DNA of 49,653 nt from Methanobacteriota archaeon (GTDB lineage Archaea > Thermoplasmatota > Thermoplasmata > SG8-5 > DAIRED01). Below are positions 1 through 49,534 of the stretch, in pieces; within the stretch, counting starts at the first letter, position 1; each line of letters starts with the position of its first letter. The notes beneath the pieces are model-generated. The model made no database searches. It was not told the DNA's origin and saw nothing but the letters and a program-made list of their open reading frames with translations. The position numbers were made by a program, and so were the translations under genes. The stretch is from NCBI GenBank assembly GCA_043799545.1, contig JAZDNO010000021.1:1-49653 (forward strand), written 5' to 3'.

Positions 1-95
1 GGCCTTTTCCTTCCGCCTGATGTGGTACGGCTCCATGCTTTCACTCCTGGGCGCGCGCAACGTTGTCTCGATGCACCAGTGTGAGCCGGCCTCCT

Positions 96-1661
96 TCAGA
101 CGTACCCGCGCTTGTCGTCCGTGAAGTGCTGGTTCCAGTAATGGTACGGAGAGTTCTGTTTCTGTGACCCGGTCATATCGCTCGCGACCCCGCCCTGGTA
201 GGAGCCGTAGCGGTCCTTTATCTGCTCCTCGATGCTCTTCGCGCGCTTCAAGGCATCCTGGATGTCCGCGCCGGTTATCAGCTTGTGGCCTTCCACGGTG
301 GCTATGTCGCCGGCGGTCCTTATGAGCCCTCCCAGCTCCCTGAGGCGGAGAGTCAACCCCTTCTCGCGGTTGTCCAGAAGCTTGGCGCGCCTCCCGGCCT
401 CCTTGATGGTTTCGTCGAGAGCCTCGATGGATGCGTGCGGAATCCTTCCGTCCATTATTATCTCCTGGGCGGCGAACTGGGCGAGCTTGAATCTGTTCTC
501 CTCGGTGTCTTCCATCGCCGTCTCCACAAGCACCTCGTATCCCGAGCCTATTATCCTCGACCTCAGAGGCGAGAGGATGTATTGCAGGTCCTGGATGTTG
601 TAGGCGCCGACGAAGATGAAATCGCATGGGACGTTGTCCACTCGGACGCTGGCGCCCGCGCTCTGCGGGTTCCTCCCGACTATCGGGAAACGCTTCTCCT
701 GCATTGCGGTGAGAAGGAAGCGCTGAAGCTGGGCCAGATGCGGCAGCTCGTCCACGAAAAGGACGCCCTGGTGCGCTTCGTGTATGGCACCCGGCAGCAC
801 TCTCTCGTAAGGCTGGGTCCCCAGTGTGGGATGCCCCCCGTACGGGTCGTGGCGCACGTCCCCCAGGAGTTCGACCTCGCTCGCACCGGTCGCAAGGACG
901 AAAGGGTTGCGGTTCACTGGAACGATGACCTTTCTGGGGCTGAGCTTGTCCATCTCCCGCGACTGCTCCAGCGCCTTCTGGTCGAGGATGCGAATCATCT
1001 CGCCTGCGCGCTCGTACACTACGACCTCGTCCTTGCCGAAGCGCTTCCTGGTGGTCGTGACGCGCTCATGGCCCGCCTGCGCGCCCATCGTCACCTCCAG
1101 CAGCCCGCCCAGCAGGTCGCCGAACGGGTTGTTCGGCGAGGCGCTCATGTTGGACATCTTCGGCCTCGTGCACTTCGGGCAGAAACGCTCCTTCGGAGTG
1201 GAATATGTGCCGCAGGTGACGCATTTGAAGCTCAGTCGCTCTGCCACGTTTACTGGAGCAGCTTTCGGCTCGATGAGCTCTCCCCCGGCCACCTGCTCGG
1301 TCTTGCTCTCCAGCTCCGCCTCCTCGCGGCTCTTGACCTCGATGAGCGGCCTCTCCGGGTTCTCAGGGTTCTGGACCACTCGAATCTCTTCTGAAGGCCT
1401 GTGCAGGTGGAGCGCAAGCGCCTGAGCTATCATCGATTTTCCGGTTCCCGGCGGACCCACCAGCATCAGATGCCTGCGCTGGTTTGCCGCTATCCTAGCG
1501 AGCTTGATGGCGTCGTCCTGGCCAATGACCCTTTTCAACGGATCCTTCGGTATGGGTATCTCAGCGGTGCTGGCGATGCCGTCGAGCGTCCACGCGGGGG
1601 AGCTCTCCTGCGATTCCGACGCCTGCCGCTCGCCCTTCGGGGTGATGCAAACCACTCTCAC
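96..1661 (-). CDS. LonB-like AAA+ ATPase lacking the protease domain and the TM insert (soluble, zinc-ribbon insert)
   Basis: LonB-type N-terminus VIGQDDAI, Walker A GPPGTGKS, Walker B VLFVDE, LLGDVRHDPY motif. CVTC-x10-CPKC sits where LonB has TM helices. The protein ends after the AAA lid with no Ser-Lys protease domain. The GTG start overlaps the dnaG stop (GTGA). Confidence 0.88.
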   Translation of the reverse strand: MRVVCITPKGERQASESQESSPAWTLDGIASTAEIPIPKDPLKRVIGQDDAIKLARIAANQRRHLMLVGPPGTGKSMIAQALALHLHRPSEEIRVVQNPENPERPLIEVKSREEAELESKTEQVAGGELIEPKAAPVNVAERLSFKCVTCGTYSTPKERFCPKCTRPKMSNMSASPNNPFGDLLGGLLEVTMGAQAGHERVTTTRKRFGKDEVVVYERAGEMIRILDQKALEQSREMDKLSPRKVIVPVNRNPFVLATGASEVELLGDVRHDPYGGHPTLGTQPYERVLPGAIHEAHQGVLFVDELPHLAQLQRFLLTAMQEKRFPIVGRNPQSAGASVRVDNVPCDFIFVGAYNIQDLQYILSPLRSRIIGSGYEVLVETAMEDTEENRFKLAQFAAQEIIMDGRIPHASIEALDETIKEAGRRAKLLDNREKGLTLRLRELGGLIRTAGDIATVEGHKLITGADIQDALKRAKSIEEQIKDRYGSYQGGVASDMTGSQKQNSPYHYWNQHFTDDKRGYV

Positions 1662-9292: not shown

Positions 9293-9313
9293 GGGGCCGG
9301 AGTTACCGGCCCC
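9293..9313 (-). terminator. GC hairpin overlapping the stop codon of the giant surface gene, followed by a U-rich tract
   Basis: ggggccgg-agtta-ccggcccc (8-bp stem); on the minus strand it is followed by tcaggtttttctttt. Confidence 0.55.
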
Positions 9314-12300
9314 CCGCCTCCTCCGGGTTGCCCACGTAGGAGAGTGATTTCCGCCTGCGGCGGTAGACGGCCATAGGGAGGCCCACCACAGGCGGGATAA
9401 TCGCAATCATCTCGGCCGAGAACTCGGGAACGGGGATGATGACGCTGAGAATCTGGGACCAGCCCGTGCCGTCTGCGCTTGACGCGCCCTTGTCCGGGGC
9501 ACCAGCGATTACGTCGTTGTTGTCATCGTCGTTCAGGTCGCCTGCTTTACATACGGACCAGCCAAAGTGGCCGCCCGCTTGGGTTCCGTTTTTAATGTAA
9601 TCGCAATCAGACGCTGAGATTGTACCCGACAAGCCGGACGCACCGTTGAAAACGTAGACCGCGCCAGCGTCGGTGCCACCATTGTTATTGTTGGGGGCGC
9701 CGATCACAATGTCGTCTACGCTGTCACCGCTGATGTCTCCGGCGGCGTGAACGGACCAGCCGAAGCGGTCACCCGAGGATTCGCCGGTAAAGATGACATC
9801 TGGCATTGAGCAATATATGTAGTATATTTTAATGTCATGAAATATTGGAGACATACAGACATCGGTGGTTTTCATTTCAATATTATAGCATAAATCCTTA
9901 CCCACTGTTTCCGCAGGGAATATATACCATTGGCCCCTTTTAATATCTGAAATGTTCCAAGTAGCCCCACCATCTCTGGAGAAATTCACCCAGCAATTTG
10001 TACCTATCGGTGTTGTAACATTCCAGAACGGTTTGATGGCGGAGACGTAATATGGCACGTATGTCGTAGATGACGTGTAATCTCCAGAGGTATCGAATGT
10101 GTACAGCTTTATATCATCCACATATGCAAGTGCCATCCCGTTGTCAGCTGGGCTGTTAAAGTTCCAGGGATCGGTGATGAATTGAATGTTGTCAAGGCTA
10201 GCAACCGCGGTCCTAAATGGAGTGCTCTTACGAGCTAATGCTCCATCAATGTAGAAATCAAATGTGTCTGTTGTTGCAGCATCGAAGAGGAGTTCGAAGT
10301 GGTACCATTGGCCTGGTGTGTACGGTTGAAATGAGTATACTGTTGTACCTTGCGTGTACGTCATGTAACCATCGCTAAACCCAATCTCGATTCCAATAGT
10401 GGTTCCGCTCCTCAATCTAATTGCGAATTGCTCCTGGGTGGTTCCCTGGTCAGTGCACCGCGTCCATAGGTCGAAGACGCCAACGGTCATCGCCGAGAAT
10501 GTGTCTGATATGATGTTGCATCCTATGTCTTCACTTGAACTGTTATCATAGAAAACCATGGACTTCGTACCACCATGGTATACCGCATTACTGATTGCAA
10601 TGTTGGTGCCGGACTCCTGCGTCGGAATCCCCCACGGGGGATCTCGGGGATCTCCGCCAGCTGTGGCGTTCTCCAGATTATCCTCGAACACCATGTTTAT
10701 TGTCAGGTTCAGATTGTCATCGGAAGTGGCATAGATGTTGCCCGAGGGATTTACATCCTCCAAACTGCTTCCCGTTGCCGTGAAATCGGACTGAGCCGTG
10801 TCTGACCGTGATGCTTCGGTATCGAAATCATCATCCAGCCAGGCGTAAGCTGCTCCTGCGCCTGCCAATGGAGCTCCTATTATAATGTCGCCTTTTCCAC
10901 CACCGTCCCCGTTCATGTTTCCGGCATTCGCCACGCTGAAACCGAAGTTGTTTGCGGTGATGCCGCCAATCACATGGAGATACATATGGTCGACATGAAT
11001 CGTGTCCTGGTTCGAATCGCTTGTGGAGGCGTCAATAACACCGATGTATAGAGTCCCCGTGAAAGCATCGAGCGTGGCGTCTGAATATATCTGGTACGCA
11101 TCGTCATCGGTGGTTTTTGTAACATCCAGCATCTTTGTCCATGTTGAGACTGCCCCGGTGCCGGTTGTGGAATAATAGAACCCCATGTTCTCGGAATCCA
11201 GGTTTGTGCGATACGCTTCGAGGTAGAATGACGTGTCGGATCCCGTCGCAACCAAGGAAAACGTCCATTTGTGTTCCAGCCTCACGGATGCTGGAGTGAC
11301 GGTCGTATAGACCCGCATGAAGTCAACATTCAATGTATCCTGACCGTCTCCTGAACTGACAGTATCAATCACGCCCACGTAGAACGCCCCTCCCATATAC
11401 CCTGCCGCGTCGAGGTCGAACGTGAGCGTGTTGAGTGCCTGAGTCGTGTCTGTGAACATTAAGGTCCAGGCGGCCCCTCCGACAGGGTCCGTGCCAGTCG
11501 TGGAATACCAGTACTGGAAGTTATCGTCACCTCCGCTCGCCCAGCCTACATGTGCTTGGAACTCGTACTGGTTGGCTGATGACGGGACGGTTGTGAACGT
11601 CCACTTGTGCTCGAGGCTGTAGTATGCGGGAGTTGGGGCGACTTTGGTCACATTAACGAGGTCAAGCCAGACTGCCTCACCATTGACGCCTGCCGCGCGC
11701 CATTGGATCTGGAACGCAGCGTGCAGATACTGCGAATCGGTGATTGTCTGCTGATAATGATACCAAGTATCCTCTGTTGCTTGCAGGGTTGCCAGATCGA
11801 CAATGGAATCCCAAGTGCCTGTGTTGTCATAATAATATAGGCTATAATCGCCGGCATCGCCATCATCTTCACGCCACCAGAAATCGACGGTGACGCTGGT
11901 CGCTCCAGTGGTGCTCATCGCTGGCGATTGTAACGTCCCAGTCACTCCGGGGTTGGAACCGTCGAAGTCGGCAGAGTACGTCCCGCCGTAGGCTTGCTCC
12001 GTTTCAGGGTTCCATACGGTTCCTGCAGCTTCGGTCCAACCAGTAGGCCAAGAAGTGCCTTCGAAACTCTGTGTGGCTATCAATGTGACGGTCGTGCTGC
12101 TAGCGCCGACATAGGCCTCCACAATGTTCTCGTTCGTCCCGTCCTGCGCAAGCGTGGCGGAGTAATCGTTCGTGTGCGATGCCGACTGGGTGAACGTTTC
12201 CGATGCGGTGGCGTAGTCCGAATCGTACGTCGCCGCTGCGGTGGTTTCAGTGACGCTCTCGTAACCGTCATCAGAAGTTAACGTGTTCGAGTACGTGCCA

Positions 12301-15300
12301 GACACTGTCCCGACTACCGCGCTGTCGGACCCTGCGTAATAATCTTCGGTCAAGCTCGTACCGATTGAGAGCAGTTCCTTGTAAGGGATTGATTTGATGT
12401 ACATGTGGTCGATGAAAACCGAGTTGAGCTCGGTGTTCCCAACAGTCCTGTCGGCATCCCTGACCCCCACGTAGAGGGGTCCAGAGTAATAATTCAAATT
12501 CTCGTCCGAATAAGTCTGATAACTATTGTCATCGGTGGTTTTTGTTAAGGTAACCATCTTTGTCCAATCCGAAGTTCCAACGATGCCATCTTCGACCATT
12601 GAGTAATAGAATTCGAAGTCATCCCCTTCTGAATTTGATGAATGGTAGGCATCAATATAGAAAGTGCAGTTCGAACGTTCCGGGATGGTAAATTCCCATT
12701 TATGCTCCTCGAAACTAGTCATTCTCACTACCCAGTACGCAGCATTCTCAACATAATCAATCTCGTCGGCATTATTATCCAATATCGTCAGGTTGAATGC
12801 GAAGAACACTATCTGTCCGCCGTTGGCGGTGTTGGAGTCGTCATCGTGAGCGATGATTGTGCAACCCACGTTTGTCGCCGCCCAATCCCCGACGATGACG
12901 TTGTACTCGCCAGCGTCAGCATCTATCGTTGGCCCATCGGCTTGGTAAGTGAAACCGAGCGTGGTGAGTGTAGGGTCTGCCAACGTATTCGGCGTGCTTG
13001 CAACGGGGTGGGTCGGAGTCTGTATGTCGAAGTCAGTATTCGCGGTTATCTCTGTGTTCGAATCGATATTGAGCACGTCATCCATGAACTCCGTCCAAGA
13101 TTGAGCATTGGCAAAATCCGCGATGTCCCCACCCTCGACTATCAACGGCCCACCTGCCTGGGTATAATCCGCGAGATTATCGCGCACCGCATCGCTGCCA
13201 CCCATCAAATTCATATATCGGCTTCCCGAAGACCAGACAATGAATGTGTATCCCAACCATGTCGATTCTGCATTCTCATCGGTCATGTACGATGCACTGC
13301 TCTGTTCTTCCGTAACTGTGTAACCCAACCCGGTTAAAATCGTGCTGAATAAATCTGCGCTTCCGTCGAACGCATCGTTTCCATCATCATCTATAACGAG
13401 CACCCCTGACTGGCTGGTTTCCTGGATGGACTCATACGTATCGTCCTGGGAGTGCGTATCCTCATGCGTCCCTGACACCGTGCCTTTCGACGGGATGTCG
13501 GATTCGCTTTGCCTGTTCGTCGGAGTGTAATATACGAAGGCGCGGTCCTTCCCCGGCTCCCCCACAATGACCTCGCAACCGCCAACTCCGTCGGTGTTTC
13601 CAGCAGCTGAAACGGAGATACCGAAATAGCCGTTTTCATGTTTACCCTTCAATATCATATCGGCACCGCTTGCGGTTTCAGATGCCACGGTATTCTCCCC
13701 GTAGAATACGTAAGCCCCACCCACGTTTCCTTTGATTTCCTCCGTCTCACCTGTGACAATTATGTCATCAAGATACCAATAATCGATGTTCACGGTGCTG
13801 CCTACGAATGTCCAGGACAGGTAAAGCGTGCTCGACCCGGCTCCTAGCGCCTGGGAAATCACCGCGCTCTCGGTGGTCGCAGGCACGTTCGCAGTTGGCG
13901 ACATCGTCCAGGCTGTCGACCAGGTGCTGGCGTCAGTTGAGGTTTCCAACCTTATCTCGAACGTGTTGGAGTACCAGTCTACCATGTGCTTGAAGCTGAC
14001 TGTCAACTCGGTGTAACCCGAGGTATCGATACCCGGCGTGTAATCCCGGAATGTGCCAGTTGTGGATGCATAATATCTGAAGCGCATCTCCGGTGTCGTC
14101 CCGCCGGCATAATTCGTGTTGCTCGCACCCCACCTATTGGCATCCGTCCTTGTCCAACCGGTCGGGTTCGAACCTGGTGAGACGCCGGTGAAAAACTCGG
14201 AGAAAACGTTCTGAGATGTTAATATTGGTTGGCTTCGATATGGCGCGCCGACAATGATGTCGCTGTCACCTCCATTCGAAACGTCCTCGGCACCGCTGAC
14301 GCTCGCACCGAAATTGTCCCCTGTCTCCTCGCCGGTTAGCGTCACGTCAGCGTTTGCCACAGTTATTGTTTTCGGGAGCGTGCCGCCCGTTATCGTGGTG
14401 GAATAGAATATGTAAGCGCGACCCGTGCCGGAATTATACCCTGGCGCGCCAATAATTATGTCCGGGCCTCCGCCATTGACATCCCCGGCGTCGCTGACGC
14501 TCCAACCGAAATTATCACCACTATTTGCTCCGAGGATTGTCACGTTCGCTTTCACTGCGTTGAGATACTTCGAGCTGGAAGACGTGAAGCCTTCGTAGCC
14601 GAAGAACACGTAGGCGACCCCCGTGCCACTGCTGTTTCCGGGCGCCCCCACAATCACATCGTCCACACCGTCAGCGTTGATATCGCCAGCATATGAAACG
14701 TTCCATCCGAACTTGTCGCTGGCGGTACCTCCGTAACCGGACGTCACCTCGCCCATTGTAACCATATCGCCGTTTGTCTCCGGGCCGGGCTCCCCAGACC
14801 TCCGCGCTGCCAGCTGCCCCACGTCTCGCGCCCCACCACTCTCGCTCTCGTTCCTCCAGTCGTAGTGCCGCACGCAGTACCGGTCGCCCGTCGTGTTCAT
14901 CGGGAATGAGAACTCCAGCGCGCTTCCAGTTACCCGAAGGTCGAGCGCCGAGACTTCCGTCCAGTCCCACTCGCCCGGGTTCGAGCCCGAAAAGGACATT
15001 AGCCTGGCGCGCCGCGCGACGCTTTGCTTGCCGACCATCTCCGCAACGCGGTCCGCTCCGAGCCCGTCGATTGCGTAACCGGTCGTTGTGTCGTTGTCCG
15101 TGTCGTAGTAGAACCGCAGCGAATCCATCCCGAGGTTCTGAGGCGTAGTCACCGGACCGACATACACATGCGCCCCAGTTGCGCTGTCGTCCAGCCACTG
15201 GTCTGGGCCTCCGTAGCCGTAATCGAGCGCCCCGTCGTTGTCCGAGTCCGTGTCCTGGCCGTCGGGCACCCCGTCGTTGTCGAAATCGCGCTCGTATCCG

Positions 15301-18300
15301 GGCTCGTCCTCGTCAGCCCTGCCGTCGCGGTCTGTATCTGGCCGCACGACCGGCTGCGGCTGCGTCGAACCGCCAGCCCTAGCAACGGTGTCCACGGGAA
15401 CGGGAGCGCCTGGCAGCGCACTCCCGCCGAATGATGCATACCCATACGATTCGCCCGACACGGACACCGAAGAACTTGAAACCATCGGCGCCGGACTGGA
15501 TATCGCACCTGCCCATTCGCCGAACGCACCGTCCACGACCGCACCCGCGGGAATCGTTTCCCAGTAGTGCAATTTCGTGTTGGTTTCTAGCACAAGCCCC
15601 TTGCCAGACGCGGACGAAACGGATTTCACCCTCGCCCCGAAAGCGTCGCTCGTGGTGAGCCAGTTGACCTGCAGCTCGATGAAGACAGACACGCTTGAAC
15701 CAGACGTGGCCGGGATGCTCGTCGCCAGCGCCGCGGCTCCCGATAAGAAACTCCCCTGAGCCAACTGACCGCCGTCGAGCCCGACAAGCCTGCATTCCGG
15801 GATGGAAGTGTCCGAACCGCCGACCCTCTCGACTTCGATGCTGGAAACCGTCGCGTCGCCGCTGAACGCCCTGAGAACCACAGACGAAATCCTCAGCCAG
15901 CCTGTTGTAGATTCTATATCTTGGCCGATTGATGAAACGTCGGCCGACACGGAGGCCGCGCCGGGGGCGAAGTAACAGTCCGAGAAGTCGGTGAATTGGT
16001 TGTCCCACGATTGCGAATTCGCCAGGAGGCGGATAGGCGTCTGGGGGTTGGCGGATATCGAAGACCAATCGACCTGGGTTTCCAGCTCGGGACCGGAGAC
16101 CATCGCCCCTATGCCGCTGGACTGCTGGAATCCGTTCCAGTCCCATTGGTCGGCGCCGACGAAGGAACTGAGGCCGCAGGTTGCCACGCCGCCCAGGAAT
16201 CCGCTTGCGATTAAGACGTGGTCGGCTCCGATGCCAGATACAAGATATCCGGTTGCGGAGTTGGAGTCCGAATCTATGAACACCCTGATGGTATCCAGCC
16301 TGCCCTCCTGCGCCACAGGCTCCCCGGCGAGCATCGAAGCCGCCACGGCGACGCGGATGGCAAGATAGCGCCCTCCGTTGTCCGTAGCGCTCACGGAAGT
16401 GATGTCGACGTTTCCGTTGAAGGGTGCGGGCATCGCAGCGAGGGTCGAAACCGGGATGTTCTCCCAGTCGTTGAACCTTCCGTCAATCTCGATCGGCAGC
16501 GCCGAGCTTTCCACAGTCGTCATGGAGGAGAACAGTGGCATGAGGAGCAGGCCGAAAAGAACGAGGGGGATGAGGTACAGCTTCCACTGGTTGCTCGAAG
16601 CCTGAGTCCTGTATCTGGTTCCGCCTAAGCCGTTGGTCAGCCCGTTTCCGTTTGTCAGGCCGTTCGTCATCCCGTGCGGGAAGGCTCCGAGCCCGTCGAG
16701 GTCGCCTAAGCCGTTGGTCAGCCCGTTCGTGCGGCCGCCAGCGCCGTTGGTCAAACCGTTGGTTCGCCCACGCCCAGCACCATTCACGAGGCCGTTCGTG
16801 CGACCTCGCCCCGAACCGTTGACCATCCCATTTGTTCTGCCCTTGAGACCGTTCGTAAGACCGTTTGTCCTTCCCTTGCCAGAACCGTTCACAAGGCCGT
16901 TTGTGCGACCGCGCCCAGAGCCGTTGACAAGGCCGTTGGTCCTGCCTTTCAGGCCATTGGTCCGCCCCTTGCCAGAACCGTTCACAAGACCATTCGTGCG
17001 ACCCTGCAACCCGTTTGTGCGCCCGAGCCCGTTCGTCCTGCCCTTGCCCGCTCCGTTCACCATGCCGTTCGTTCGGCCTTTGGCGAGCCCGTTCGTCATG
17101 CCGGTAGCGCGCTGCTTCGCAGCCAGGCCGTTGGTCATTCCCTTCCGCTTCGCAGGGTCGTGGGTCATCGAATCGAACTTGGCAGATTCCCTCGCCGTCG
17201 GCTCGATTTTACGCACGACCTTTGGTCTCGCGACAGGCTGGGTGAGGTCGTGTGTGAGGGAATCCAGCAGCGTCTCCTCTTCAGCCTTTGGTTGGACAAG
17301 TTGTCTGGGTTTTGGCTTGGGTTTCGCCTGCGGCGCCGTGACATCGTGGGTGATGCGGTCTATCTCGTCCTCCTCAGCCTTCACAGGCTCCCTTGGCTTG
17401 GGCGATATTGGCTTGAGGCCAAGCTCCTCGTCCGCCAGCCTGAGGGTTTCGGCCTGCACCTTGCCCTGCTCGGACTTCCACTCGTCCGTCGGCGAAAAAC
17501 CCGCAAGGGCTTCCAGCTCGCCCAACATGTCCGTGACATCGTCCTTGGTAACGTTCTTCGCCTTCTCCTCGTCGGCGCGCTTTTGGCAAGATGCCGCGAC
17601 CTTGTCCTGACCCAGCTTGGCGAACAGTTCGGCCTTGAGAGCCCATACCTCGTAAGAGGCCGGGTTGAGCTTAGTAACGTCATTGAGGGCGTTGAGCGCT
17701 TCGCGCAATCGTCCCAATCCCGCTAGAATCTTCCCCTTCTCGAGCCACAGGGCCGTGTTCGTCGAATCGAATGCAAGCTTCGCCTCTACGTCTGCGAGCT
17801 GCTTCTCCAGTGGGTTTATCTTCTGGTCGTTGAAAATCATCCCGCACTCGTAGCAGTCTCCATCCGCAGCACCGAGTATCGTCCCGCAGAGCGGGCAGTC
17901 CCTTTCAGCCATCTGCGACTTTGCCTCGGCGGGTGGGCTGGCAGCGGCGGCCTTTATCTCCTTGGCGGTTCTCTGGCCAATTCCTTTGATGTTGGCGATA
18001 TCCGTTTCCGTTGCAGCGACAATCTCTTCGAGGGATCTGAAGCCCGCAACGTACAGCGCGCTAGCCTTCATGGGTCCGATGTTGTCGAGCCTCTGGAACT
18101 CAGCCTCCACGTCGTCTCTTGACCTTGCAATTGCGCTGCCTCCGAATTCGGCAGCGAGCTCTGCGAGGATGATGGCGGGGTCGGCAGTGCCTGACATCGA
18201 TTCGTAAAGTTCCTTCGAAACGGACAATGATGTGCGGAGCATGGTTTTTCGATAGTATCCAGCAGCCTCCGAGGCCTTGCCCAGCCGGTTCAGGACATGG

Positions 18301-18563
18301 GCCTTTGCGGACGGCAGCCCGTCAATAGTAGGATCCAGCGCCTCGGCCTTGTCGAGCGCGGCCAGCGATTGCGCGAATCGTTCAAGGTCGCTCAGGACCA
18401 GGGCTCTGGCGTACCATATCCTTGCGTTCTTCGGGTCTTTCTGGAGCAGGCTCTCCTGCTTGCGGAGGATGTCCTCCTCTTTGTTCGATGCCGAGGGTGG
18501 CTCGGTGGACTTGCTCCACTTAGCGACAAAATCCTCACCGAACTTCTTTTCCTTCTTGTCCAT
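9303..18563 (-). CDS. Giant (~3090 aa) membrane-spanning surface protein: TPR-HhH-zinc ribbon-TPR, [TV]NG repeats, TM, DOMON/CBM9-like pair, FG-GAP propeller with inserted domains, PEF-CTERM
   Basis: Uninterrupted ORF. TPRs (NARIWYARALVLSDL, NTALWLEKGKILAGL); tandem HhH (LDNIGPMKA, IKGIGQRTA); TM LYLIPLVLFGLLLMPLF; 7 FGxSV..GDxNxDG..DxIxGAP repeats; DxDxDG Ca-binding loops; C-terminal VPEF-hydrophobic-RRRRK. Start is ATG 18563 or 18587. Confidence 0.88.
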   Translation of the reverse strand: MDKKEKKFGEDFVAKWSKSTEPPSASNKEEDILRKQESLLQKDPKNARIWYARALVLSDLERFAQSLAALDKAEALDPTIDGLPSAKAHVLNRLGKASEAAGYYRKTMLRTSLSVSKELYESMSGTADPAIILAELAAEFGGSAIARSRDDVEAEFQRLDNIGPMKASALYVAGFRSLEEIVAATETDIANIKGIGQRTAKEIKAAAASPPAEAKSQMAERDCPLCGTILGAADGDCYECGMIFNDQKINPLEKQLADVEAKLAFDSTNTALWLEKGKILAGLGRLREALNALNDVTKLNPASYEVWALKAELFAKLGQDKVAASCQKRADEEKAKNVTKDDVTDMLGELEALAGFSPTDEWKSEQGKVQAETLRLADEELGLKPISPKPREPVKAEEDEIDRITHDVTAPQAKPKPKPRQLVQPKAEEETLLDSLTHDLTQPVARPKVVRKIEPTARESAKFDSMTHDPAKRKGMTNGLAAKQRATGMTNGLAKGRTNGMVNGAGKGRTNGLGRTNGLQGRTNGLVNGSGKGRTNGLKGRTNGLVNGSGRGRTNGLVNGSGKGRTNGLTNGLKGRTNGMVNGSGRGRTNGLVNGAGRGRTNGLTNGAGGRTNGLTNGLGDLDGLGAFPHGMTNGLTNGNGLTNGLGGTRYRTQASSNQWKLYLIPLVLFGLLLMPLFSSMTTVESSALPIEIDGRFNDWENIPVSTLAAMPAPFNGNVDITSVSATDNGGRYLAIRVAVAASMLAGEPVAQEGRLDTIRVFIDSDSNSATGYLVSGIGADHVLIASGFLGGVATCGLSSFVGADQWDWNGFQQSSGIGAMVSGPELETQVDWSSISANPQTPIRLLANSQSWDNQFTDFSDCYFAPGAASVSADVSSIGQDIESTTGWLRISSVVLRAFSGDATVSSIEVERVGGSDTSIPECRLVGLDGGQLAQGSFLSGAAALATSIPATSGSSVSVFIELQVNWLTTSDAFGARVKSVSSASGKGLVLETNTKLHYWETIPAGAVVDGAFGEWAGAISSPAPMVSSSSVSVSGESYGYASFGGSALPGAPVPVDTVARAGGSTQPQPVVRPDTDRDGRADEDEPGYERDFDNDGVPDGQDTDSDNDGALDYGYGGPDQWLDDSATGAHVYVGPVTTPQNLGMDSLRFYYDTDNDTTTGYAIDGLGADRVAEMVGKQSVARRARLMSFSGSNPGEWDWTEVSALDLRVTGSALEFSFPMNTTGDRYCVRHYDWRNESESGGARDVGQLAARRSGEPGPETNGDMVTMGEVTSGYGGTASDKFGWNVSYAGDINADGVDDVIVGAPGNSSGTGVAYVFFGYEGFTSSSSKYLNAVKANVTILGANSGDNFGWSVSDAGDVNGGGPDIIIGAPGYNSGTGRAYIFYSTTITGGTLPKTITVANADVTLTGEETGDNFGASVSGAEDVSNGGDSDIIVGAPYRSQPILTSQNVFSEFFTGVSPGSNPTGWTRTDANRWGASNTNYAGGTTPEMRFRYYASTTGTFRDYTPGIDTSGYTELTVSFKHMVDWYSNTFEIRLETSTDASTWSTAWTMSPTANVPATTESAVISQALGAGSSTLYLSWTFVGSTVNIDYWYLDDIIVTGETEEIKGNVGGAYVFYGENTVASETASGADMILKGKHENGYFGISVSAAGNTDGVGGCEVIVGEPGKDRAFVYYTPTNRQSESDIPSKGTVSGTHEDTHSQDDTYESIQETSQSGVLVIDDDGNDAFDGSADLFSTILTGLGYTVTEEQSSASYMTDENAESTWLGYTFIVWSSGSRYMNLMGGSDAVRDNLADYTQAGGPLIVEGGDIADFANAQSWTEFMDDVLNIDSNTEITANTDFDIQTPTHPVASTPNTLADPTLTTLGFTYQADGPTIDADAGEYNVIVGDWAATNVGCTIIAHDDDSNTANGGQIVFFAFNLTILDNNADEIDYVENAAYWVVRMTSFEEHKWEFTIPERSNCTFYIDAYHSSNSEGDDFEFYYSMVEDGIVGTSDWTKMVTLTKTTDDNSYQTYSDENLNYYSGPLYVGVRDADRTVGNTELNSVFIDHMYIKSIPYKELLSIGTSLTEDYYAGSDSAVVGTVSGTYSNTLTSDDGYESVTETTAAATYDSDYATASETFTQSASHTNDYSATLAQDGTNENIVEAYVGASSTTVTLIATQSFEGTSWPTGWTEAAGTVWNPETEQAYGGTYSADFDGSNPGVTGTLQSPAMSTTGATSVTVDFWWREDDGDAGDYSLYYYDNTGTWDSIVDLATLQATEDTWYHYQQTITDSQYLHAAFQIQWRAAGVNGEAVWLDLVNVTKVAPTPAYYSLEHKWTFTTVPSSANQYEFQAHVGWASGGDDNFQYWYSTTGTDPVGGAAWTLMFTDTTQALNTLTFDLDAAGYMGGAFYVGVIDTVSSGDGQDTLNVDFMRVYTTVTPASVRLEHKWTFSLVATGSDTSFYLEAYRTNLDSENMGFYYSTTGTGAVSTWTKMLDVTKTTDDDAYQIYSDATLDAFTGTLYIGVIDASTSDSNQDTIHVDHMYLHVIGGITANNFGFSVANAGNMNGDGGGKGDIIIGAPLAGAGAAYAWLDDDFDTEASRSDTAQSDFTATGSSLEDVNPSGNIYATSDDNLNLTINMVFEDNLENATAGGDPRDPPWGIPTQESGTNIAISNAVYHGGTKSMVFYDNSSSEDIGCNIISDTFSAMTVGVFDLWTRCTDQGTTQEQFAIRLRSGTTIGIEIGFSDGYMTYTQGTTVYSFQPYTPGQWYHFELLFDAATTDTFDFYIDGALARKSTPFRTAVASLDNIQFITDPWNFNSPADNGMALAYVDDIKLYTFDTSGDYTSSTTYVPYYVSAIKPFWNVTTPIGTNCWVNFSRDGGATWNISDIKRGQWYIFPAETVGKDLCYNIEMKTTDVCMSPIFHDIKIYYIYCSMPDVIFTGESSGDRFGWSVHAAGDISGDSVDDIVIGAPNNNNGGTDAGAVYVFNGASGLSGTISASDCDYIKNGTQAGGHFGWSVCKAGDLNDDDNNDVIAGAPDKGASSADGTGWSQILSVIIPVPEFSAEMIAIIPPVVGLPMAVYRRRRKSLSYVGNPEEAGGR
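16622..17142 (-). repeat. Coding low-complexity repeat, about 26 copies of [LMR][TV]NG
   Basis: GRTNGLVNGSGKGRTNGL... read directly from the translation; ccgtt-rich DNA on the + strand. Confidence 0.95.
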
Positions 18564-18650
18564 GGTATAACATTCTTCTTTATGCAACTAAGGTATTAAA
18601 CAATAGAGGCAATTGATAAAACATGAAGTTACAATTATACACGTTAATGG

Positions 18651-44001: not shown

Positions 44002-47000
44002 TTAGTACGACTTGGTCCAGACTCCGTCCGAGGTGACCTTCACCCAGTACGCATTGTCGGGCGCCATCAGGCTCGCGTCGTTCATCGCGCTGGTCAGGTA
44101 CGTCTGCCCGCCGTCGTACTGCTCGACGGTCTGTACGGTCGTTCCCGAGACATCCGCCTTGAACATAGCGACCGTGTACCCGAGGTCATCCGACGGGAAG
44201 CCAACGAGGTTCCAGCCAGCCTTGAGCGTGATGTTGGTCAAGACTGGCGTGGTGTACGCGGCTCCGCCGATGCATATCTGGCCGTCGCCGACAACGGTCA
44301 CGAAGAGCCAAATGCCCATCGTAACGTCGACTGCTGTGAGGTCGTTCAAAGCCGGGTTCCATACGGTGTAGTACTGCTTCCACACGTCGGCCCCGCCGTT
44401 CGGGTCGTACCACATCGCGCGGGTCCACTGGACCAAGCCGGCTCCGCCGTTCGCAAGGTCCGTCAGAGCGCCCGGCATGGAGGTCGGCCCGGAGATGTTC
44501 ACGGACACGAGGTTCCAGCCGATGTGGTCCACGGTTATGTTCTGCCAAGGCGACGCAGCCCCGGCAGTGACGTTAATCCAAACGCTGACCGCCGCGCTCC
44601 ATCCGTTGCCGGTGTTGCCCGGAGCGGCCTCGTGGCCCCTGACGAATATCTGGTGGTTGGTTCCGCCTGGCCAGGCCGCCGTGGGGATTGCGTACGTGAA
44701 TGCCTCGTCGATGTTGTCGAACGCCCCGTCGCCGTTCATCGGGGTTCCCAGGCCAGCGCCCGGGTCCGTGGTGTCGTACCACTCGGCCCCGTCCATCTTC
44801 AGGATGTCCTCCCATGTGGAGGAGTCGTCGAAGACGGACGCTGTGAGTGCGACCGAGGCTGTTCCCTGCGGGATTTCAACGGCAGTGACGCCGTCCACTA
44901 GGACGTTGCTCGCCAGCGGCGCCTCGTTGAACTTCGAGGCCCTTCCGGTGGAGAATCCCTCGGAGTGCGCGTCCACCGCGGTCACGATGTACCAGATGTT
45001 GAACACCATGTCGTCCGCCTCGCCGTAGTGCCTGTAGATGTCGGTTCCCGCCGGGACGCTTGCCAGGTAGTCGAACGGCCCCGCTGAGTCGCCGCCTGTG
45101 AATTCGTCGGAGTAGTAGACGTTGTAGTATGTGACGTCGTTCGCGCCCGCGCCGTCGTCGGCGCTCAGGTCCCACTGCACGTTGATCGTTGTGTTTACTG
45201 GAGATATCAGAGAACGCACGTACAGATTGTCTATGAATACCGTGTCCGGGACCGCGTCGCCGCCGGTGTCGGCCTTGACGCGCAGGTAAAGGGCTCCCGA
45301 GAATGTCGTCGGCATGCTAGCCATGTAGGTCGCGTACGATGCCGAGTTGATGGTTATCAATGTGGTGTACGGACCTGCGAGGGTCTGCGACCATCCGATG
45401 GAGAACGTGTCGTCCGCGCCCGCGCTCGTGCGCGCTGTGGCGTAGACCGTGTTGCTCAGGGTGTTCGCCGGCATGTTCTGCATCGTCCAGCGGTGCTCGG
45501 CGTTGTAGCCGGACTGCTGGGCGGTTATCAGGATGTCGTCGATTTTCAGCTGGTACCAGTCCGTGCAGAGGCAGTGCTCCCAGGCCACGTAAATCATCTG
45601 GCCGATGTACGGCGTGAGGCTTGCCGTGCGCTGGGTGTATGCGATTCCGGTCAGCGTGTAATCTGCGATGAGGTTGGTGAATGCACCCGCTGTCGGGGTC
45701 GTCGTCGAGACCCTGACCTGGTATCTCTCGGATGGCCAGGCAGCGTCCTGAGCGGCATCCCACCAGGTGGCTGTCGCCGTCGTGTACCCGCCCGTAAGGT
45801 CTATCTGCTGGGTTATCAGGTAGTTGTCGGGTGTGAGGGCTCCGACGCCGTTGACGTAGGACTCGCTGTACGCGCCTCGGGTGCCGCTGTGCACCGGCTG
45901 GACCGCGGAGTCCGTTATCTGCATCCAGTTGTACCCATCCCCGTCCGCGTCTATGGTGGACCAGCCTGCCGGCAGCCATCCTCCCTCGAACCCCTCGTCC
46001 ACGAAGGTGACCGTTCCTGCCGTCGCCACTTCCGTTATCTGCTGGGCGCTGCCGTCCAGGGTCTGCGTGAGCCCGTGCACTCCCGCGACCGTGCCGACCA
46101 CCGCGTTGTCCGCGCTCGTCAGCTCGTTCTGGAACACGGCTCCGGTGATGTCCTGCCATTTTATCCGCACCCGGTCCACGTAAAGGGTGTCCGCTGCGGA
46201 ATCCGTGCCGCTCGAGTCTACGACGTTGATGTAGAACACGCCGCTCAGCAGCGGGATGCCGGCCTGGTAGGTCGCCATCGTCTCGCCGTTCACGGTGAGC
46301 AAGGGCGAGTACGGTCCGGCCAGCACTGCCGAGTATCCGAACGTGAAAGAGTCGTCCGGGGTCGCGCTGGTCCTGCCCGTTACTTCAAGGGTCAAGATTT
46401 CCGCCCCCGCCGGCACATTCTGGGTCCTCCAGCGGTGCTCGAGCGAGTATGTCGTCGGGGTGGTGTAGGTGACTGTGACGTTCATGCGGTCGGTCCTGAG
46501 AATCTGGTTACCTGTCACCTGGTAGCAACCCCATGACAGCGTCCCGTTCAACATGTAGTTGCTCGGATTCACGGTTATCGCGGCTCCCACCACGACGTCC
46601 GTGTTAGCCGCTCCGGCGACAGTGCCGCCGATTGTCGTCCAGGTAGTCGTCGACTGGTCCAACGCGTAGAGCTGGAAATTGGTTGCTGCGGCAGACTGCA
46701 GCTCGCAGCTCAGGAATATCCTCGTGACGCTCGCTGGGGACTGGCTGACCACAACGTCGCTCCACATGAACGTCTCGTCGCCGTTCCCGGCTGCGGCCAC
46801 AATCCATCGCGTGTCCTCCGAGGTCGTTATCTGGCCGAAGTTGGCGTCCGTCGCCCTGACCTTCGTGTTCAGATTGGCGCCCGTCGGGGGCATCGCGTCC
46901 ACGTCCGAGGCAAACGCGTTGTGCGGCCCTGCCGCCTGCGTGACACCCGTGTAAGTGTACTGAGCCACTTGGGTTCCGCCCGGTATGGTCGCCTCGAGTA

Positions 47001-49299
47001 TGTTCTCCGTCGCCGCGTCAGGCGCTCCCAGCTCGTCGACGTTCTGGTAACCGTTTGCCAGCGGGGTCACGGTCCCCTCGACCGCGTTGTCCTGGTCCAC
47101 CGTATAGTAGTTGGTGGTCTGCGTCAGCGGCGGCGGGGCGTAGACCCTCAGGTTCTCCGGCGTCGTCGGCAGGTCGTCCACCCACAGTCCGATGTCGTCG
47201 TAGTAGAAGTCCTGCGGCGCCACCGGGCCCTCCCCGAAGAAGAAGACTATGCCCGCGTCGTCGGCGGCGTTCTCCAGGAATCCGAAAGTCCCCTGAGACG
47301 CGCCGTTCCAGAATATCTCGCAGGTGTTTGCAATTGCGTCATAGCTAACGTTGATGTGGTTCCATGTTCCTGGAGTTATCGTCGGCCCGTCGATGATCGT
47401 TCCGCCCGCGCTCCCGTCGCCGTCGACGAATTTCACCTGCCCAGGCTCGGGAATGTTGGCCACAGACAGGTCCGTGCCGAGCGATATTATCGTGACTAGG
47501 TATGTCTGCGTGGTGTCGAGAAGGTATACCGAACCGGCGCCGACGGTCTGCTCCGCGTAGAACCAGAACCCGAAGTTGCCGTACGTGACAAAGTCGCCTC
47601 CCAGGTAAGCCCCCATGTCGCATGCCGTGTCGCTGTTCGCCTCCCACAGGCGAACGCTCTGCGTTCCCGTGTGCGCGACCGCGTCCGATATGCGCACTGT
47701 TCCATCCTGTACATCGCCCCAGGCCGAGACGTCGTCCATGAAAACCTCCGACTGGGTGCCTGTCGTTCCTCGTGCCCGGAATCCCGCGATGCCCGCGCCC
47801 TCGTTCGCAAGGGCTGGACCGCTGCCAACGTAGTTCGCATAATCGATGTCGATGCCCATGTAACATTTGTTGGTCGCATCCATGTAGGCATCTATCCAGT
47901 ACTCGGTGTCCGCGGCGAAGGCCACCCCCAGGTTTGTCCAGGTGACGCCCGTCAGATACTGTATCTGCCCGCCCGAGAACCTCAGCGCCATCAGGATTCT
48001 GCCGTTGAAATCTAGTATCTCGAACGTCGCGCCGTTCGTGTTCGCAATCGTGGTGCTAGTTTTGACGCCCCACGAGACGCCTGCGAACGCGCCCCAGGCG
48101 TACGGCGGCGGGAATAACGCAGTCGTTGATGCCGGCGCCGTCGCGTAGTTGTTCTGGTCGATGTAAACGCTCTGGGCTCCCCCCCCCCCGTACGACCATG
48201 TATCGACGACGTCCACAACGTGCGCTCCGCCCGTGGCTGGTGTAAAGTGGAACCAGTTGTCGACGTAGATGTTTGACGGCGGCTGGGCGGTCGCCTCGCC
48301 CCCGAACCAGAACATCGAGTTTATGTCCGCCTCCGTGGGGTCGTTCCATGCCGAACCCGCTGCGAGCTGTGCTCCGTTCCACCACACCGAATAGGTCTGG
48401 CCCACTTCGTTGTATTGAACGTAGAATTCGTACCACGTGTTCGCTGCATAAGTCGTCAATACAGTCTGGGTTCCGCCTGGGTAGTGGTAAAGGCTCCCTC
48501 CGAAGAAGATGAACTGCATCGCGGGGTTGTTGCCGCCGCCCAGATTATAGTCGTAGAGCCAGAAGTCAGCCCTCTGGGTCGTCGAGGTCAACCTCACCCA
48601 GCATCCGGCGTAGGCCGAGGTGACAGTTCCGCTGGAATCGATCCCCGCGGGTCCGAAGGTGGATTGCGCAGGCTCGTCCACCCCTTCGTTGAACTGGGCG
48701 CACATGGTGCCTGTCGTGAGACCGGTGATGATCGTCCCTGCGGGCGCCCCTGCGGGCGGCGTGACCGCCAGGGTGGTTGCGTCTCCACCAAGGTTCGTGA
48801 AGTCGCCCGCATCTCCCGCCATGTAGCCGGTCGAGAGATCCTGACTCACTACGGTGTCTTCCATGTTCCTCCCCCAGTAAGTTGGTGCGGAGGTTCCGTC
48901 GACTGTGGTCCAGTACGGCGTGTCCGGGTTCTGCCCGACCGTGTCGTTCTCGAAGTCGTCCGGTCCCCAGTTGCCGTACGTTGTCGACGCGACCTCAGTG
49001 ACTACCCACGGCGGGTCGTCCGGCACGTTGCCGACGATTCCGGTCTCAAAACCCTCGTTGAATACTACGCTCTCCGGCCTCTCGACGGGCGGAAGCTGGT
49101 TCAGCTTCATCCTGCCGTCGACCAACCGGGCCGTGTCAAATGCCCTGTCGCCCAATTGAACTGCGCTTGGCAAGCCCTTTGCCTGCAAGGGTACCTGCTT
49201 CGCACCGTCGTTCCCAAACCCACTCAGCCCTGTGAAAACGGTCGCCACCATGGCCACCGCGAACACAAGGGACAATAATTGCCCGAATTTTGCATTCAT
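44002..49299 (-). CDS. Large secreted surface/adhesin-like protein with nested LamG-like, FN3-like and cleaved-adhesin-like domains and C-terminal GWNL domains
   Basis: Signal peptide KFGQLLSLVFAVAMVATVF; Trp/Tyr-rich beta modules ending in xDDI/V; DADGDG Ca-loop; two C-terminal GWNLV repeats; no C-terminal TM. RBS spacing favours ATG 49299 (alternatives 49305, 49320). Confidence 0.85.
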   Translation of the reverse strand: MNAKFGQLLSLVFAVAMVATVFTGLSGFGNDGAKQVPLQAKGLPSAVQLGDRAFDTARLVDGRMKLNQLPPVERPESVVFNEGFETGIVGNVPDDPPWVVTEVASTTYGNWGPDDFENDTVGQNPDTPYWTTVDGTSAPTYWGRNMEDTVVSQDLSTGYMAGDAGDFTNLGGDATTLAVTPPAGAPAGTIITGLTTGTMCAQFNEGVDEPAQSTFGPAGIDSSGTVTSAYAGCWVRLTSTTQRADFWLYDYNLGGGNNPAMQFIFFGGSLYHYPGGTQTVLTTYAANTWYEFYVQYNEVGQTYSVWWNGAQLAAGSAWNDPTEADINSMFWFGGEATAQPPSNIYVDNWFHFTPATGGAHVVDVVDTWSYGGGGAQSVYIDQNNYATAPASTTALFPPPYAWGAFAGVSWGVKTSTTIANTNGATFEILDFNGRILMALRFSGGQIQYLTGVTWTNLGVAFAADTEYWIDAYMDATNKCYMGIDIDYANYVGSGPALANEGAGIAGFRARGTTGTQSEVFMDDVSAWGDVQDGTVRISDAVAHTGTQSVRLWEANSDTACDMGAYLGGDFVTYGNFGFWFYAEQTVGAGSVYLLDTTQTYLVTIISLGTDLSVANIPEPGQVKFVDGDGSAGGTIIDGPTITPGTWNHINVSYDAIANTCEIFWNGASQGTFGFLENAADDAGIVFFFGEGPVAPQDFYYDDIGLWVDDLPTTPENLRVYAPPPLTQTTNYYTVDQDNAVEGTVTPLANGYQNVDELGAPDAATENILEATIPGGTQVAQYTYTGVTQAAGPHNAFASDVDAMPPTGANLNTKVRATDANFGQITTSEDTRWIVAAAGNGDETFMWSDVVVSQSPASVTRIFLSCELQSAAATNFQLYALDQSTTTWTTIGGTVAGAANTDVVVGAAITVNPSNYMLNGTLSWGCYQVTGNQILRTDRMNVTVTYTTPTTYSLEHRWRTQNVPAGAEILTLEVTGRTSATPDDSFTFGYSAVLAGPYSPLLTVNGETMATYQAGIPLLSGVFYINVVDSSGTDSAADTLYVDRVRIKWQDITGAVFQNELTSADNAVVGTVAGVHGLTQTLDGSAQQITEVATAGTVTFVDEGFEGGWLPAGWSTIDADGDGYNWMQITDSAVQPVHSGTRGAYSESYVNGVGALTPDNYLITQQIDLTGGYTTATATWWDAAQDAAWPSERYQVRVSTTTPTAGAFTNLIADYTLTGIAYTQRTASLTPYIGQMIYVAWEHCLCTDWYQLKIDDILITAQQSGYNAEHRWTMQNMPANTLSNTVYATARTSAGADDTFSIGWSQTLAGPYTTLITINSASYATYMASMPTTFSGALYLRVKADTGGDAVPDTVFIDNLYVRSLISPVNTTINVQWDLSADDGAGANDVTYYNVYYSDEFTGGDSAGPFDYLASVPAGTDIYRHYGEADDMVFNIWYIVTAVDAHSEGFSTGRASKFNEAPLASNVLVDGVTAVEIPQGTASVALTASVFDDSSTWEDILKMDGAEWYDTTDPGAGLGTPMNGDGAFDNIDEAFTYAIPTAAWPGGTNHQIFVRGHEAAPGNTGNGWSAAVSVWINVTAGAASPWQNITVDHIGWNLVSVNISGPTSMPGALTDLANGGAGLVQWTRAMWYDPNGGADVWKQYYTVWNPALNDLTAVDVTMGIWLFVTVVGDGQICIGGAAYTTPVLTNITLKAGWNLVGFPSDDLGYTVAMFKADVSGTTVQTVEQYDGGQTYLTSAMNDASLMAPDNAYWVKVTSDGVWTKSY
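48179..48189 (-). repeat. G11 homopolymer within the surface-protein CDS
   Basis: 11 consecutive C on the + strand; reads TAC GGG GGG GGG GGA (YGGGG) on the coding strand. Confidence 0.9.
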
Positions 49300-49534
49300 C
49301 TCCATTCCTCCATCCCGCATCGTAATCCCAAACAGAAAGCAGGGATAATTGTTTTGTTAGGATAGGTTATAATATGAAACTGATACCTTATATAGTTTAC
49401 GCAAAATAATATCTACTACATACATAGCATTTAAATACTACCCCAGAGAACACATATATAGATATATAAATAATATATGAAAATTAAATTTTACATGAAT
49501 ATATACGAATGAAAAACGGAAAAGTAAAGGATTT

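Follow-up and report, generated by a model that had tools for sequence, protein, structure and literature searches.

Which domains make up a protein of 1,772 residues in which standard annotation finds one domain, and how are they joined? This question is raised by the gene P0001, which is located at 44002..49320 on the minus strand of a 49,653-nucleotide stretch from a Methanobacteriota archaeon (contig JAZDNO010000021.1; the whole stretch is called the window below) and whose database copy begins at Met6. The sole match in whole-protein scans against Pfam and NCBIfam was a Cleaved_Adhesin / choice-of-anchor J domain at residues 1106-1265. Most of the remaining sequence is accounted for by domains which enclose one another like brackets. 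P0001 is quite probably a multivalent lectin-type surface protein of an uncultured Candidatus Thermoplasmatota archaeon, secreted or N-terminally anchored, whose domains are joined by insertion and not end-to-end, and whose architecture originates from ordinary ancient insertions.

Residues 85-712, referred to as the head, consist of three concanavalin/LamG-like jelly rolls, homologous to each other and arranged as A1-B1-C-B2-A2, which corresponds to two nested insertion events. The parts of the head are:

48985..49068, minus strand: opening strands of domain A (outer LamG-like), residues 85-112, by alignment, hhalign and VIA-align
48886..48984, minus strand: opening strands of domain B (middle LamG-like), residues 113-145, by VIA-align and hhalign
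48241..48885, minus strand: domain C (inner, contiguous LamG-like), residues 146-360, by VIA-align, closing motif VDNW
47713..48240, minus strand: body of domain B, residues 361-536, by VIA-align and hhalign, closing motif MDDV
47185..47712, minus strand: body of domain A, residues 537-712, by Pfam Laminin_G_3 and VIA-align, closing motif YDDI

The motifs quoted in the original prediction, which was made from the letters of this stretch, were all found in their places in the open reading frame (ORF) 44002..49320 (minus strand). The opening motif EGFETG..DDPPW of domain A covers residues 89-105 (nt 49056-49006), and its continuation VRISDAVAHTGTQS follows 437 codons later at residues 542-555 (nt 47697-47656). 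The last residues of the closing motifs VDNW, MDDV and YDDI are 355, 531 and 710, respectively. Six residues in the opening of A (F91, E92, G97, P104, W105, and E109) are invariant across the orthologs.

A contiguous copy of the A-type domain is present at residues 2631-2831 of the 3094-aa protein encoded by the giant gene P0002, which is located in the same window (9303..18587, minus strand). Spliced A (85-112 + 537-712) reached a Smith-Waterman score of 138 (z 16) against this copy in an alignment that crosses the splice, compared with 96 (z 10.7) for the A body alone. Profile-profile comparisons were performed with hhalign using profiles made from P0001 orthologs. Spliced A and spliced B were aligned collinearly (95.6% probability, E 1.2e-8, columns 4-203/8-205), as were spliced B and the contiguous C (96.5% probability, E 1e-9, columns 5-205/3-212). 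The openings of A and B alone matched with 97% and E 1e-10, and the two bodies alone with E 0.037 only. Based on these results, A, B and C belong to one family, and the split members are collinear with the unsplit C only once the inserts are excised. In Pfam, the A body (537-712) scored above the cut-off of Laminin_G_3 (PF13385; E 1.3e-6, 29.1 bits versus 27.6), while no model matched B or C at cut-off.

An AlphaFold2 model of residues 60-725, for which an 11-sequence alignment served as input, has a predicted local distance difference test score (pLDDT) of 73.7 (model number + 59 = protein number). With VIA-align, single-domain jelly-roll chains superpose over three strictly nested ranges of this predicted model. 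The outer range (19-25..654-663) is matched by the carbohydrate-binding module (CBM) of the sialidase BT_1020 (5mqr, residues 409-614 of the 1082-residue chain) with Z 22.2, a root-mean-square deviation (rmsd) of 2.2 and 182 residues aligned over 19..657, as well as by many GH16 enzymes with Z about 15. The middle range (56-59..477) is matched by Cip1 (3zyp, Z 16.2) and GH131 (Z 15.7), and the inner range (85-88..303-304) by the lectin domain of the Vibrio cholerae sialidase (2w68_B, Z 15.9, rmsd 3.2, 180 aligned). Taken together, A, B and C each superpose on two-sheet jelly-roll folds with Z 15-22, rmsd 2.2-3.5 and 175-198 aligned residues. The claim that domains of the same family are nested three levels deep is thus borne out by the spliced alignment, by hhalign and by the ranges in the model, which are nested and not arranged like beads on a string. 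Spliced sequences and predicted model both indicate that the two pieces of each interrupted host belong to one fold unit.

A protein of the latter kind, in which the openings are a small leader domain or linkers and the bodies are self-sufficient tandem domains without any nesting, is nevertheless to be considered. Some properties of the head weigh against the nested arrangement: its opening strands have a low to moderate pLDDT of just 45-70, the aligned count of the outer domain exceeds the body length by merely 2-10 residues, and the nesting in the model was deduced from the two end residues of each VIA-align alignment and the number of residues aligned, not from strand contacts. The A and B bodies alone are hardly alike in hhalign, as given above, and some carrier bodies in other proteins, which are described below, have no detected opening. 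On the other hand, the spliced constructs run collinearly through the splice when aligned with contiguous homologs, and up to 198 residues (9k7m_A) were aligned for domain B, compared with 176 in its body. Moreover, number and order of the carrier openings and bodies obey bracket rules, and both a contiguous carrier and a contiguous FN3-like domain are present in relatives. A beads-on-a-string protein is therefore very unlikely.

The nested head is not restricted to P0001. Ten orthologs with 46-58% identity and similar length were identified, mostly without name or annotated as 'hypothetical'; the named members of the ortholog clusters are annotated as Candidatus Thermoplasmatota or Euryarchaeota metagenome-assembled genomes. 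The order A-opening, B-opening, C, B-body, A-body is kept in these orthologs and in the distant members P0027, P0051/P0166 and P0091, which differ in their downstream parts. In P0017 and the N-terminally truncated P0022 it is seen in part only. Since the order recurs in orthologs and distant members, the LamG nest is an old, fixed supradomain. A word-index search revealed no shorter proteins with a LamG head and no one- or two-level intermediates.

Downstream of the head, residues 716-1470 would form an arm, in which a FN3-like sandwich is split between its strands A and B and houses two beta-sandwich carriers of about 140 residues, named after their EH[KR]W motif. Each carrier would in turn be split at the loop between its opening and its body by a jelly roll of binding type, the passenger. 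The parts of the arm are:

47131..47175, minus strand: Pro-flanked strand PTTPENLRVY (proposed strand A), residues 716-730, kept in orthologs and distant relatives
46987..47109, minus strand: opening of carrier 1, residues 738-778, by the opening hidden Markov model (HMM)
46456..46986, minus strand: passenger 1, jelly roll, residues 779-955, by VIA-align, no Pfam family
46153..46455, minus strand: body of carrier 1 from EHRW, residues 956-1056, by the body HMM
46021..46134, minus strand: opening of carrier 2, residues 1063-1100, by the opening HMM
45514..46020, minus strand: passenger 2, cleaved-adhesin / choice-of-anchor J, residues 1101-1269, by Pfam, NCBIfam and VIA-align
45208..45513, minus strand: body of carrier 2 from EHRW, residues 1270-1371, by the body HMM
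44911..45207, minus strand: FN3-like remainder from strand B (TINVQWD), residues 1372-1470, by comparison with relatives

The carrier was described by two HMMs, one for the 37-residue opening (consensus roughly ..aV.GTVtG.y.n....DG..E.I.E) and one for the 102-residue body starting from LEH[KR]W. They were used to scan about 160 relatives, which an exhaustive search using residues 700-1480 as query had retrieved. The motif is found as EHRW at residues 961 and 1275 of P0001 and three times as EHKW in P0002. According to the comparison of these relatives, the EH[KR]W carrier is a real domain of about 140 residues that consists of opening and body. A natural contiguous carrier is found in G135 (P0168), where the loop between opening and body has a length of about 10 residues. 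The carriers of the other relatives are split.

In most proteins in which both parts were detected, the openings (o) and bodies (B) are arranged around the passengers (P) as balanced brackets, up to four deep. P0001 and most of its orthologs read (oPB)(oPB), and P0002 reads (oPB)(o(oPB)B). Deeper nests are found in P0030/P0165 (oooo-P-BBBB), in P0123/P0167 (oo-P-BB) and in P0166/P0027 (oooo-P-BBB-o-P-BB), P0027 having one extra unmatched opening at its end. P0009 (oooo-P-B) is cut by a contig end, as are fragments such as P0055 and P0083. In G032 the HMMs gave one opening followed by two bodies, and a second opening was read by eye upstream; likewise, a diverged second opening that was missed by the HMM was read by eye in G080. 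Both then read o(oB)B.

These bracket words also bear on a crossed or domain-swapped arrangement, in which the first opening would pair with the first body and so on, resulting in an interdigitated bundle and not a Russian doll. The HABAS domains of the RNA polymerase insertion Si3, which are recursively inserted, do swap elements in part (PMC11515920). However, the ranges in the head model are strictly nested (19..657 > 56..477 > 87..304), and the word oooo-P-BBB-o-P-BB is balanced only under nested pairing. Where two openings and two bodies are adjacent in P0002, unit a of this protein is the closest match of the first opening (47% identity) and of the last body (44%), while the inner opening and body show 32% and 35% identity to it. 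This co-typing of outer opening and last body is what nested pairing predicts. Crossed strands are thus highly improbable, and the openings and bodies can be assumed to be paired from the inside outwards.

A whole-genome search of this 2.06-Mb genome revealed six copies of the carrier body in three giant ORFs, so that the insertion-tolerant toolkit which the original prediction had proposed to be shared with the giant gene is indeed present. Carrier matches were obtained in 13 of the 201 sampled genomes of the phylum. Among the relatives, the passengers include choice-of-anchor J / cleaved-adhesin domains and a second jelly roll, and both types are located in differing hosts.

The carrier body and the contiguous carrier were compared with Pfam, NCBIfam and PDB sequences, and nothing was found at the cut-offs. 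A weak match of the contiguous carrier of P0168 to the F5/8 type C family (PF00754, E 0.062) is only a hint that the carrier could be a galactose-binding-like sandwich; a protein atlas gave a CBM32 cluster (0.75) for the carrier.

In P0002, residues 1692-2540 (within 9303-18587, minus strand) comprise a single carrier and a two-level nest o(o-P-B)B. The passenger of the single carrier has about 230 aa (residues 1728-1955) and no Pfam match, and a choice-of-anchor J-like domain is enclosed by the two-level nest. Among the FG-GAP blades, residues 1461-1614 form another choice-of-anchor J domain. The third giant ORF of this genome, L001 (G000 contig C22:1-12000, minus strand, 2449 aa), contains one carrier with its opening at 1941-1973 and its body at 2146-2248, between which a choice-of-anchor J domain is inserted. 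The C-terminal ends of P0166 (residues 1880-1912) and P0027 (residues 1900-2022) look frameshifted or affected by a contig end.

The metagenomic proteins P0030, P0165, P0123 and P0167 carry their two- and four-deep nests within CxxCH-rich proteins, one of which bears the source annotation 'cytochrome family protein'. The carrier module is therefore not limited to adhesin-like proteins. As a tentative generalization, which falls somewhat short of being probable, the carrier would be an undescribed family that serves almost solely as a recursive insertion host, with up to four copies stacked around one binding domain, also in multihaem-cytochrome-like proteins; combined with the split FN3-like domain and the self-nested LamG head, it would provide a bracket grammar with which some archaea build branched, tree-like and multivalent surface proteins.

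In the FN3-like domain, 652 codons separate PTTPENLRV (residues 718-726) from TINVQWD, which begins at residue 1378; strand B follows just six residues after the final strand of carrier 2. In distant relatives the Pro-flanked strand (718-727) takes the form P.PPTNCW/Y.... The same host loop between strands A and B is empty in P0171, where the FN3-like domain is contiguous (..PAPPRMLPAVLAG..DVRLTWELSADDGAG..), and contains one domain in two further relatives. In P0172, PPGNLAVSW is followed by a choice-of-anchor J domain and then by IEWTLSADDGAG, and in P0173, PAAPTALSV is followed by a domain of the passenger 1 family, which sits directly within the FN3-like domain, and then by LNWTLSADDGAG. 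In both proteins a PxxPxxLxV strand is located directly upstream of the insert and a ..W.LS.DDGAG.. strand directly downstream. In P0001 the loop contains two carrier-plus-passenger units. This natural series of loop fillings supports the view that the FN3-like domain is split between strands A and B and takes up its inserts in that loop.

The FN3-like remainder (residues 1366-1475) matched no Pfam family including fn3 (PF00041) at E<=10 and no PDB sequence, and the contiguous homolog (P0171:268-375) did not match Pfam fn3 at E<=1. The topology of the carriers and the FN3-like domain has a comparative sequence basis, the corresponding part of the second AlphaFold2 model having pLDDT 48-79, with 48-67 in the FN3-like region and <50 in strand A. 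In the VIA-align list for this model, which was filled by cleaved-adhesin matches, no PDB match covered the carriers or the FN3-like part. Finally, carrier bodies without a detected opening occur in other genomes (L004, L007, L008, L009), which may be due to the short opening HMM missing diverged copies. These points count against the arrangement proposed for the arm. In the features of the protein atlas the remainder falls into a fn3 cluster (0.91), which is a lead only. A complex prediction of the remainder with a strand-A piece gave 0.21 against a mark of 0.32; it was run without controls and is not used as evidence. Of the split FN3 domain in the original prediction, the split thus stands by comparison with P0171, P0172 and P0173, while a Pfam fn3 match is missing and the label 'FN3' is a guess at the fold.

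Both passengers are jelly rolls. Passenger 1 superposes on 9eui_D (Z 13.6, rmsd 2.6, 145 aligned, model 80..249) and gave no match to Pfam, NCBIfam or PDB sequences at the cut-offs. Passenger 2 matches the cleaved-adhesin family PF07675 (E 4.1e-31, 108.7 bits versus a cut-off of 21.4) and the choice-of-anchor J family NF038128 (E 1.7e-23, 83.6 bits versus 30), and superposes on the gingipain Kgp domains K1/K3 with Z 18.7-18.8 and 40% identity in the structural alignment. By analogy with Kgp for passenger 2 and with sialidase CBMs for the head, the most likely role of P0001 would be multivalent glycan or cell binding.

In the proposed architecture, each inner jelly roll of the head would occupy the loop that follows its host's opening strands. 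As the first and last strands of such sandwiches are adjacent, a whole domain could bud from a hairpin loop. Repeated budding might result in a compact, branched and linker-free cluster, in which the binding faces are held off the chain axis, comparable to the split domains of RTX adhesins.

How did this nesting arise? The original prediction had considered a dedicated in-frame cassette mechanism. An active system of this kind, based on site-specific recombination or retro-homing of domain cassettes, would now be building and shuffling these genes. The repeated use of the same loop, the occurrence of the same passengers in different hosts and a carrier nesting depth of 1 to 4 among family members would suit such a system. 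The junction positions, however, are common to the ten orthologs, identical in spite of only 46-58% identity, and to more distant family members. At the DNA level, blastn revealed no similarity between the P0001 and P0002 genes, and the sole match inside the P0001 gene has a length of 34 bp (85%) and lies across the two EHRW motifs. No repeats were found at the junctions 48984/5, 48885/6, 48240/1 and 47712/3, the short repeats being weak, of low identity and located elsewhere. Furthermore, none of the four neighboring ORFs scanned encodes a recombinase, a reverse transcriptase or a mobile element, and the carrier occurs in just 13 of the 201 sampled genomes. An active cassette system is thus extremely unlikely, and this claim is not supported.

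The architecture would rather go back to ordinary, ancient insertions and duplications at the gene level, which took place at permissive loops. The co-typing of units a and b in P0002 suggests that a whole host unit was duplicated and that the same loop was then filled differently. Such a sequence of events is expected from a permissive loop and ordinary illegitimate recombination.

Split domains that carry inserts are known from RTX adhesins, for which Graham et al. 2024, Proteins 92:933 is reportedly cited within the two papers given next. In AhLap, FrhA and MpIBP, split Ig-like domains project ligand-binding domains (PMC12077191, PMC10865825). As proposed for P0001, the Ig-like sandwich of a long surface protein is interrupted there, and the ligand-binding domain, whose two termini lie next to each other, projects from it. 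AhLap also shows heterotypic nesting, in which a RTX roll contains a vWFA domain with a further insert. The split FN3-like domain, the carriers and the cleaved-adhesin-type passenger of P0001 appear to follow the same logic. In contrast to the RTX adhesins, P0001 is archaeal, has a Sec-type N-terminus and uses LamG-like domains and the EH[KR]W carrier, which are unrelated families, as hosts; domains of one family are nested recursively in each other, and a single host takes up two inserts. P0001 shows no type I secretion features, and its whole-protein Pfam/NCBIfam scans revealed neither RTX nor extender families. It works like the split-domain RTX adhesins and is not a member of them. Archaea are not mentioned in the papers on split-domain adhesins that were returned by the literature search.

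Nested domain insertion is mostly one level deep and reaches six levels in an extreme case, the cyanobacterial RNA polymerase (PMC13114784). In the Si3 insertion of its beta' subunit, HABAS (SBHM) domains are inserted recursively in HABAS domains and are partly domain-swapped (PMC11515920). Si3 resembles P0001 in that domains of one family are inserted repeatedly into one another, but it belongs to a cytoplasmic enzyme and has another fold, whereas the jelly rolls of P0001 are lectin-like and extracellular, and the insertion involves two host families that are independent of each other. Regarding the single domains, the sialidase CBMs (5mqr of BT_1020; 2w68) and Laminin_G_3 have the same fold as A, B and C (Z 15.9-22.2), but A, B and C show 8-16% sequence identity to the sialidase CBMs and are nested in each other and not in a catalytic domain. 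Passenger 2 is a member of the cleaved adhesin (PF07675; gingipain Kgp/HagA) and choice-of-anchor J (NF038128) families; unlike in gingipain, it is an insert in a carrier in a FN3-like domain and not part of a proteolytically released tandem array.

The principle of insertion is therefore already known from bacterial adhesins and RNA polymerase, and the undescribed domain families and their unusually systematic use are new. Previous descriptions of homotypic recursion come chiefly from RNA polymerase Si3. In the protein family of P0001, recursion is the regular way in which domains are joined, and it is used by two extracellular host families that are unrelated to each other. With P0001, the budding of ligand-binding domains from split hosts, a rule for the RTX adhesins of Gram-negative bacteria, also applies to surface proteins of archaea. 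The natural series of contiguous, singly split and up to four-deep nested hosts is useful for the folding of discontinuous domains, for the prediction of domain boundaries and for branched display scaffolds.

The remaining parts of the gene are its two ends:

49201..49320, minus strand: N-terminal basic and hydrophobic stretch, residues 1-40, by sequence reading
44005..44910, minus strand: C-terminal region, residues 1471-1772, nothing at Pfam/NCBIfam/PDB cut-offs

The N-terminal stretch, which is hydrophobic also in the ortholog consensus, is probably a signal peptide or signal anchor responsible for export or N-terminal anchoring of P0001. The four neighboring ORFs encode, according to Pfam, a NOG1 GTPase, a helix-turn-helix regulator, a histidine/aromatic ammonia-lyase and one protein without match. 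A weak match to DUF2436 (E 0.0094), which is below the cut-off, covers residues 1455-1600 approximately (44911-45360, minus strand). The last part of P0001 (residues ~1590-1772, 44005-44550, minus strand) matched nothing in Pfam or NCBIfam; a comparison by eye shows similarity to the C-terminal ends of P0171, P0172 and P0173 in the motifs GWN.VGYPS and GNAYWV.V. This C-terminal domain, about 180 residues long, may serve for attachment to the surface.

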